Shown: piece by piece, positions 1 through 632 of the stretch
Numbering within the stretch: the stretch's first letter is position 1
Layout: each line of letters starts with the position of its first letter
DNA from: Escherichia coli
GTDB taxonomy: Bacteria; Pseudomonadota; Gammaproteobacteria; Enterobacterales; Enterobacteriaceae
Length of the DNA: 632 nucleotides
Strand: one strand, 5' to 3'
Assembly: GCF_003334335.1 (NCBI RefSeq)
Contig: NZ_QOWQ01000166.1
Notes under the pieces: model-generated
The model's input: only the letters and a program-made list of their open reading frames with translations
The model's database searches: none
What the model was told of the DNA's origin: nothing
Position numbers and translations under genes: made by a program

Positions 1-62
1 CCGCAGGCGCTTACGACCAGCGGCAACGTCAGCGCGCAGAGTTTCATTTTCAGCTCTCGCAT
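1..62 (-). CDS. Rz1: o-spanin outer-membrane lipoprotein, lambda Rz1-like, embedded in the +1 frame of Rz (partial)
   Basis: Minus-strand ATG at 62..60, with a second in-frame ATG at 47..45, in the +1 frame relative to Rz. Translation to the window edge: [20 protein letters not shown]. This is a lipoprotein-type signal peptide with a lipobox-like VVSAC, the Cys codon at 5..3. It closely parallels the lambda Rz1 N-terminus as I recall it (MLKLKMMLCVMMLPLVVVGC). An embedded out-of-frame o-spanin inside the i-spanin gene is the established lambda arrangement. Confidence 0.8.
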
Positions 63-282
63 CGGCTAATTCCCTCGAGTATCTGGCATCAAGTGCAGCA
101 ACATCACGCTGGCGCTGCTGCATATCAGTAATGGTTGCATTTGCCTGCTCCAGCTCACTGACTTTTTTATCGCGCTGCTCTTTGTAGGTTATGGCGTTAT
201 CACGGTAATGATTCAGCCCCAGACTAAGCACACCACAGGCTACCAGCATGACAATAATCACCACACACAGAACACGGTTCAT
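1..282 (-). CDS. Rz: i-spanin, lambda Rz-like (N-terminal 94 codons; 3' end lies beyond the window start)
   Basis: Minus-strand ORF with ATG at 282..280 (complement), open to position 1. Hand translation: [94 protein letters not shown]. It has a short N-terminus, one hydrophobic signal-anchor helix, then a charged, Ala/Arg/Glu/Gln-rich segment typical of the periplasmic coiled-coil of i-spanins. Several blocks match lambda Rz as I recall it ([37 protein letters not shown]). Not in the ORF track, presumably because it is truncated by the window edge. Confidence 0.9.
71..76 (-). promoter_or_regulatory. Shine-Dalgarno-like element (GAGGGA) upstream of the Rz1 start
   Basis: On the minus strand GAGGGA lies 8 nt upstream of the Rz1 ATG at 62..60. 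It sits inside the Rz reading frame, as expected for an embedded gene. Assigned on sequence complementarity and spacing only. Confidence 0.35.
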
Positions 283-283
283 A

Positions 284-370
284 TCACCACCAACGAATTG
301 CCCAGACCAGAACAGCAATGGCCACAATACGAATGGCAAATGCCATTGCCCGAATAAGTTCAGCACTCAT
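284..370 (-). CDS. small single-helix hydrophobic peptide, 28 aa, function unknown (paralog C of a tandem triplet)
   Basis: Minus-strand ATG at 370..368, TGA at 286..284. Translation: [28 protein letters not shown]. Short polar N-terminus, then a hydrophobic helix with an Arg/Trp C-terminal end. It aligns without gaps to the neighbouring ORF at 382..498 (RAMAFAI versus RALAFAI). The stop is 1 nt from the Rz ATG. Below the ORF-track length cutoff. The upstream SD is weak (AAAAAG), so expression may depend on coupling. Confidence 0.5.
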
Positions 371-381
371 CTTTTTAAAGT

Positions 382-498
382 TCACGATTTCAGCGCAATG
401 ACCAGTTTTGCCAGCCCATACAGCATCGGAGACACAGCAATACCAACAGCCACCCACTTAATAGCAAAAGCCAGCGCTCTGCTGATGTCATCAGTCAC
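382..498 (-). CDS. small single-helix hydrophobic peptide, about 38 aa, function unknown (paralog B of a tandem triplet)
   Basis: Same frame as the ORF-track entry 382..597, but I place the start at GTG 498..496; an alternative GTG at 504..502 overlaps the upstream stop as GTGA. Stop TGA at 384..382. Translation from GTG498: (M)TDDISRALAFAIKWVAVGIAVSPMLYGLAKLVIALKS. The portion of the track ORF upstream of 504 (CDCRYFIFTNAGCSFSVPRLGDVVF...) is not helix-like and is antisense-frame overlap with the better-supported ORF at 501..632. The N-terminus MTDDIS and core RALAFAIKWVAV match paralog C, and VGIAVSPML matches paralog A. Confidence 0.5.
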   Translation of the reverse strand: MTDDISRALAFAIKWVAVGIAVSPMLYGLAKLVIALKS

Positions 499-500
499 TG

Positions 501-632
501 TCACCCCAGCAGCCCCGACGAAGACAACATCACCCAGGCGAGGGACAGAAAAAGAGCAACCAGCATTAGTGAAAATGAAATACCGACAATCACACACAGG
601 ACCTTTGCCGGCGTTATGAGTTTGTCTGACAT
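501..632 (-). CDS. small single-helix hydrophobic peptide, 43 aa if the ATG at the window edge is the true start, function unknown (paralog A of a tandem triplet)
   Basis: Minus-strand ATG at 632..630, exactly at the window edge, so upstream extension cannot be excluded. Stop TGA at 503..501. Translation: MSDKLITPAKVLCVIVGISFSLMLVALFLSLAWVMLSSSGLLG. Polar N-terminus with two Lys, then a hydrophobic stretch of about 26 residues. The N-terminus MSDKLI parallels MTDDIS and MSAELI in the next two ORFs, which supports this ATG as a genuine start. Core VGISFSLML matches VGIAVSPML in paralog B. Not in the ORF track. Confidence 0.45.
   Translation of the reverse strand: MSDKLITPAKVLCVIVGISFSLMLVALFLSLAWVMLSSSGLLG

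Follow-up and report, generated by a model that had tools for sequence, protein, structure and literature searches.

Two kinds of described system come closest to the junction analysed here, the start region of the lambda holin gene and the tightly spaced gene pairs of bacterial operons. In phage lambda, the S gene carries a dual-start motif, Met1-Lys2-Met3, which accounts for the S107 antiholin and the S105 holin. Amongst same-strand and coupled gene pairs, overlaps of −4 nt are by far the commonest geometry (PMC10666635). Termination–reinitiation needs overlaps or very short gaps, and reinitiation becomes sharply less efficient as the distance grows, with little left by about 20 nt (PMC10666635, PMC6728339).

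The window, i.e. the whole 632 nt stretch of Escherichia coli DNA that was analysed, matched Escherichia phage PhiR5_1 (PV340545) and many E. coli chromosomes with 100 % identity. It belongs to the lysis/late region of a lambdoid, Stx-phage-like E. coli prophage, and all of its genes are carried on the minus strand. The gene order around it, as annotated in records L001 and L002, is class II holin, lysozyme, KilAC antirepressor, three small ORFs referred to here as A, B and C, and Rz/Rz1; the co-directional ORFs A and B lie in one transcription unit in the same annotation. Co-expression of the small peptides in one operon had been proposed in an earlier reading of the sequence alone (the sequence-only reading), and this context appears compatible with it, as no promoter-like site was found within the A-to-Rz stretch and the terminator-like matches there were weak and of 5 bp only. 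No equivalent ORFs were present between rrrQ and rzpQ in the Qin prophage of E. coli K-12, so that small-protein and Ribo-seq studies of K-12 are not applicable to this locus.

The Rz i-spanin gene (1..282, minus strand) starts at ATG 282 and is represented by its first 94 codons, the rest being cut off by the window edge; PF03245 was found on its homologues. The Rz1 o-spanin gene (62..1, minus strand) is embedded in Rz in the +1 frame, starts at ATG 62 or ATG 47 and runs off the window. Its product has the lipobox VSAC, and the full product in L001 ends ...PPAWIMQPAPDWQTPLNGIISLSESG, an end that presumably resembles that of lambda Rz1. At the C/Rz junction (280..292, minus strand), which reads TGGTGGTGA-T-ATG or, as RNA, GGUGGUGA-U-AUG, a Shine–Dalgarno (SD) sequence containing the stop codon is followed by the start codon (−11.5 kcal/mol). 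This layout, with the start 1–3 nt after an SD that contains the stop, was found at both the A/B and the C/Rz junctions and, in L085 and L083, also at the antirepressor/A junction (GGAGUGGUGA-CCA-AUG). With the layout recurring in this way, the small genes form a tightly linked chain leading into Rz. The plus strand of the window holds a 123 aa ORF (248..619) that is antisense to A, B and C and unannotated in the records examined; it is probably spurious.

ORF A (632..501, minus strand) encodes a predicted 43 aa single-pass membrane peptide, MSDKLITPAK...SSSGLLG (full translation MSDKLITPAKVLCVIVGISFSLMLVALFLSLAWVMLSSSGLLG), that matched phrog_4906 (E=5e-21), a family annotated as of unknown function. 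Across six lineages aligned at 88–96 % identity, pN/pS over ORF A was 0.46 in A's frame vs 0.80 in B's frame, with 17 and 22 replacements, respectively, among 29 distinct variants. Against the homologue in L090, which is 65 % identical, pN/pS was 0.43 in A's frame vs 0.92 and 1.45 in the other two frames. On these substitution patterns ORF A is a real gene.

ORF B (382..498, minus strand; (M)TDDISRALAFAIKWVAVGIAVSPMLYGLAKLVIALKS, ending ...VTVTDDISRALAFAIKWVAVGIAVSPMLYGLAKLVIALKS at base 382) is a 5′-truncated member of a small membrane-peptide family assigned to phrog_1115, phrog_3246 and phrog_4493, and its match (E=6e-25) covered only the C-terminal part of these profiles. When the core of B was compared with distant homologues, pN/pS was 0.09–0.25 in B's frame, and the other frames looked unconstrained; pairwise comparison gave 0.37 in its own frame vs 0.62 and 1.09 in the others. 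Within the A–B lineages the constraint was weak, with six synonymous vs eight replacement variants. As judged by these ratios, the core of B is a real gene under purifying selection in B's frame. A 33 aa alternative-frame ORF (491..390, minus strand; MTSAERWLLLLSGW...) opens with an ATG inside the Thr-Asp-Asp codons of B, with GGGGTGA 9 nt upstream; no constraint was found in this frame, into which frameshifted variants of B read, ending ...GWQNWSLR.

ORF C (370..284, minus strand; RefSeq WP_032140280) encodes a 28 aa paralogue of B, the two being related by sequence (E=2e-4) and by shared PHROGs (E=3.8e-6 for C). Both B and C matched the profiles significantly in the AFAI[KR] transmembrane core. 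No frame-specific constraint was found for C in the six-lineage sample, and its putative status as a gene comes from paralogy and position only. The sequence-only reading had also treated A as a paralogue of B. This label does not stand, since BLASTP did not align A with B, even at E≤100, and the PHROG families of the two differ.

The codons at the A/B junction lie where the sequence-only reading had placed them. The TGA stop of A (503..501, minus strand) overlaps a GTG in B's frame (504..502) to form GTGA, with G504 doubling as the third base of A's last Gly codon. A second GTG in the same frame (498..496) begins 2 nt past A's stop, with C500 and A499 between, and 6 nt past the first GTG, so that two in-frame start codons are present as GTG-ACA-GTG (504..496). 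The first would give a 40 aa form of B and the second a 38 aa form beginning (M)TDDIS. An ATG in the same frame lies further in (426..424). Two SD-like elements precede these codons on the minus strand: GGGGTGA (501..507), which contains A's stop and has a GGGG core that ends 5 nt before GTG 498, and a weaker upstream GGGG (513..516) 8 nt before GTG 504.

The junction was highly conserved. Across 576 complete E. coli genomes its 71 nt showed at least 99 % identity, with 590 genomes holding most of it, and in IMG/VR and metagenomes the sequence GGGGTGACAGTG was found without change at 135 loci. GTG 498 was invariant in all lineages that carry A and B. Codon 504 was GTG in five of the six lineages and ATG in the remaining one (L083/L084), where the junction reads GGGATGACAGTG; this change to ATGA is synonymous in A (GGG to GGA) and converts GTG to ATG in B's frame, and gene callers start B there.

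About 150 further E. coli genomes matched the junction only up to base 501, the last base of A's stop. This A-only class was inspected through two representatives (L256, 608–760; L257, 606–760; O145:H28 RM12761 is among the two), in which A ends ...GGGGCTGCTGGGGTGA, identically to A of the window. In both, the 3′ end of A reads ...TCGTCGGGGCTGCTGGGGTGA, with GGGGTGA retained in the absence of any B. Neither B nor C is present at these loci, where A is followed by an 11 nt spacer and an Rz-like gene; the latter has a different N-terminus (MLSAF...). As A has GTGA where B is absent, GTGA is part of A, consisting of its last Gly codon and stop, and the motif needs no explanation related to B. Nor is it statistically special: in a set of 665 open frames of at least 40 codons from related loci, 34 % ended in [A/G/T]TGA and 10.5 % in GTGA. 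The motif thus exists and is conserved, yet A's own 3′ end would account for all of it. Of the stop/start overlap described in the sequence-only reading, what stands is that it exists, that both GTGs are in frame and that, given the steep distance dependence of reinitiation, both lie close enough to A's stop for termination–reinitiation. What does not stand is a role in its origin for B, since the A-only genomes carry GTGA as well; the overlap was inherited from ORF A and did not evolve for coupling.

Homology within the B family, as found by BLAST against other copies of B, starts exactly at base 498. On this basis the recombination joint is placed between bases 499 and 498. The site would therefore be the joint of two modules, the 3′ end of the 43-codon A and a 5′-truncated copy of B. 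Full-length relatives of B are about 60 aa long and read M..YKRILLRLT-MKNGLE..AP-V-T-[DK]-[DE]-I...; their N-terminal segment varies synonymously, and thus is coding. The segment M..YKRILLRLT-MKNGLE..AP was absent from B and C of the window, both of which begin at the Val/Met position after it and are thus truncated copies. The codon equivalent to 498 is a Val codon in full-length relatives that have their own start upstream (GTA in L003 B′, L090, L096 and L253; GTC in L249), whilst in the truncated copies it is ATG (C and the C/B hybrid of L092) or GTG (B).

On balance, we favour a start of B at GTG 498, after A's stop, to give a peptide of 38 aa. This codon is favoured because B-family homology starts there and because the ATG of paralogue C and of the C/B hybrid aligns with it. 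The only state specific to the A–B arrangement at codon 498 is the one that creates a start codon, which provides moderate evidence for 498, as the change from GTA to GTG there is a single evolutionary event, as is that from GTG to ATG at 504. The preference for 498 in the sequence-only reading, which had appealed to a match with the N-termini of the paralogues, is upheld by these points, but A cannot be counted among the paralogues. On this reading B would be expressed, and it may be coupled to A. A's last Gly codon and stop supply GGGGUGA, and either a ribosome terminating at UGA 503..501 or a fresh 30S subunit on the GGGG run (507..504) would initiate at GUG 498, two bases downstream, to yield a 38 aa single-pass peptide; if GUG 504 were also or instead used, the product would have 40 aa. 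The geometry makes translational coupling plausible at either GTG.

Predicted pairing with the 16S rRNA differed little between the two codons. GGGGU (507..503) gave −6.0 kcal/mol with a 9 nt anti-SD, compared with −5.0 kcal/mol for the upstream GGGG (516..513), a difference of about 1 kcal/mol between GTG 498 and GTG 504. With a 13 nt 16S tail, the upstream element gave −5.6 kcal/mol and GGGGTGA −10.4 kcal/mol. The last value was considered as decisive for 498 but was then given less weight, as the additional U-G-A pairing comes within 2 nt of the start codon, where steric constraints probably make it unusable.

A start at the overlapping GTG 504 itself, which would give a 40 aa B (MTVTDDIS...) reinitiated from the GTGA overlap, is a possible though less probable alternative. 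This codon is in frame, is GTG in five lineages and is ATG in L083/L084, where it is called as the start; it has a GGGG 8 nt upstream and forms the −4 overlap that is the commonest coupled geometry (PMC10666635). These points are countered by the presence of GTGA at the end of A even without B, by the family homology and the paralogue ATG, which align with 498 and not with 504, and by the slightly weaker SD of GTG 504. Initiation only at ATG 426, which the sequence-only reading had named as one outcome that would shorten or invalidate its model of B, appears unlikely, because the conserved AFAIKW core would be lost and no SD was found at this codon (−3.0 kcal/mol).

The start region was also inspected for RNA structure. 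In the minimum free energy (MFE) fold of the window, the SD pairs with bases 548..540 inside A, as does the first base of GUG 498 (fold span 560..487, minus strand). The z-score of this fold was −2.6, and two of 200 shuffled sequences folded equally well. The 5′ arm (548..540) differed in all five other lineages without compensation, indicating a haplotype-specific pairing, and the covariation term of the consensus fold was only −0.64. A structure that hides the SD and start, or that mediates coupling, was therefore rejected, the 5′ arm not being conserved and covariation being essentially absent.

That B is a decaying, 5′-truncated recombination fragment which is not meaningfully translated, both GTGs being incidental, is rather unlikely. 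It would fit with the loss from the N-terminal end of about 22 codons, which full-length relatives conserve, with the weak constraint on B within lineages, with the frequency of GTGA by chance and with the gain and loss of copies in arrays (L003 and P0110). It would also fit with one lineage (L129, L134, L135, L137, L140, L186, L213 and L258) in which the stop of A is TAA and A is intact, whilst B has a 1 nt deletion in a T4 run, flagged by PGAP as a frameshift, and C is truncated to about 15 codons. As B and C are disrupted there and A is not, B and C are dispensable in this lineage. Against decay as the general state, 133 of the 141 B-family loci of the junction census had an intact B, the near-identity of the junction extended over the 576 complete genomes, the pairwise pN/pS of B was lowest in its own frame and a start codon falls exactly at the point where B is truncated.

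The junction census was also considered as a source of natural knock-outs of either GTG. One haplotype dominates the census, and the sole variant in which GTG 504 is lost, GGGGTAACAGTG, was carried by seven loci; its stop is TAA and codon 504 becomes GTA. In those seven loci B has the 1 nt deletion and C is truncated, so the variant is uninformative on the start site.

Longer forms of B that start inside ORF A are extremely unlikely, even though B's frame is open through all of A and such models are found in databases. The RefSeq/PGAP model WP_042004856 (537..382, minus strand; 4096–4251 in L001) starts at CTG 537, 37 nt inside A, and has 51 aa; other models start at GTG 597 (71 aa) or further upstream (90 aa, phrog_3246). 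Over the stretch shared with A, pN/pS was 0.80 in B's frame, with 22 of the 29 variants being replacements, vs 0.46 in A's frame. As A is constrained in its own frame and not in B's, the extension of B upstream of 504 is not coding, and the RefSeq CTG 537 model is rejected by these substitution patterns as over-extended. In addition, no SD was found at CTG 537 (−0.5 kcal/mol) and that at GTG 597 was poor, CTG is a weak start codon and the extension did not resemble the family's true N-terminal extension. The 71–90 aa calls probably underlie the N-terminal part of phrog_3246 by reading through ORF A. Finally, joining of A and B by programmed −1 frameshifting into a fusion of about 83 aa can be practically dismissed: database proteins of 80–83 aa do join A's N-terminus to B, but they are singletons, and two of them can be put down to a single base inserted in a T5 or CC run. 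A's frame contains no slippery X XXY YYZ heptamer, and B's frame shows no coding constraint where it overlaps A (pN/pS 0.80).

Beyond this cassette, members of the B/C family were found in several genomic contexts. Two kinds of lysis cassette have them behind the endolysin. Others follow tail-fibre genes or, in myovirus-like contigs, lie 2 nt ahead of a baseplate gene (sheath initiator). They also occur 1 nt upstream of Rz in a prophage remnant that is very widespread and adjoins sopD; the chromosomes with this sopD-linked remnant are probably Salmonella. The members from baseplate, tail-fibre and Rz/sopD contexts are those of L250–L252 (about 3001–3129), L249 (3001–3189) and L253–L255 (3001–3150). 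In L003 an extra full-length copy, B′ (1177–1359; 60 aa, MAKYKRILLRLTMKNGLELKAPVTDDIS...), lies immediately upstream of A, giving the order B′-A-B-C-Rz, and in P0110 B was deleted between B and C. In L090 only the pair B′-A is present, following a GH108 endolysin, and 5 nt past A comes a gene for a small lipoprotein (lipobox LVGC). From this distribution the B/C family looks like a mobile small membrane-peptide module. The family is narrow, as a profile search of 1.84 billion representatives returned only 20 clusters at 50 % identity. Pfam, NCBIfam and PADLOC gave no hits for the peptides and Rfam gave nothing at the site; the PHROG families that match A, B and C are all annotated as of unknown function, and a literature search by accession and topic returned nothing on these peptides.

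The A/B junction is an ordinary one, in which two tiny membrane-peptide genes of a prophage lysis operon sit close together, and nothing at the site points to a new mechanism. The value of the analysis lies mainly in annotation, in that B would be modelled as a peptide of 38 or 40 aa and not as one of 51 aa (from CTG 537) or 71–90 aa. Hundreds of genomes of E. coli and Salmonella carry these peptides upstream of Rz.

Compared with lambda Rz/Rz1, the locus represents the same cassette, with Rz immediately downstream, Rz1 embedded in it and a C/Rz junction in which an SD plus stop is followed by the start. It differs in the additional peptides A, B and C, which have neither a lipobox nor a periplasmic domain and are therefore not spanins. 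With regard to the PHROG collection, A (4906) and B and C (1115, 3246 and 4493) belong to the same families as the proteins already grouped there, with B covering only the C-terminal part.

The A/B site resembles lambda S in being located in a lambdoid lysis cassette, in concerning a membrane protein and in having two in-frame starts one codon apart. It differs in that the intervening residue of B is Thr and not the charged Lys, and in that B has one membrane segment and is not a holin. Of the features of the lambda S type, the extra residues Met-Thr are uncharged, and no conserved upstream stem–loop was found at B. By analogy, A, B and C might represent a narrow mobile family of single-pass membrane peptides from enterobacterial phages (about 60 aa at full length, in lysis cassettes upstream of Rz and also in tail/baseplate operons) in which the GTG-ACA-GTG of B would act as a dual start, with two isoforms that tune lysis timing in a manner loosely like S107/S105; we regard this as very unlikely.

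The nearest likeness is with the coupled operon pairs that have ATGA or TGATG junctions (Huber et al., PMC6728339, PMC10666635). The A/B pair differs from these in that its candidate start codons are GTG and not ATG, and in that the overlap is inherited from A and not specific to the pair. It shares with them the location in one operon, the NTGA overlap, a second start 2 nt past the stop and an SD-like run within the upstream gene.
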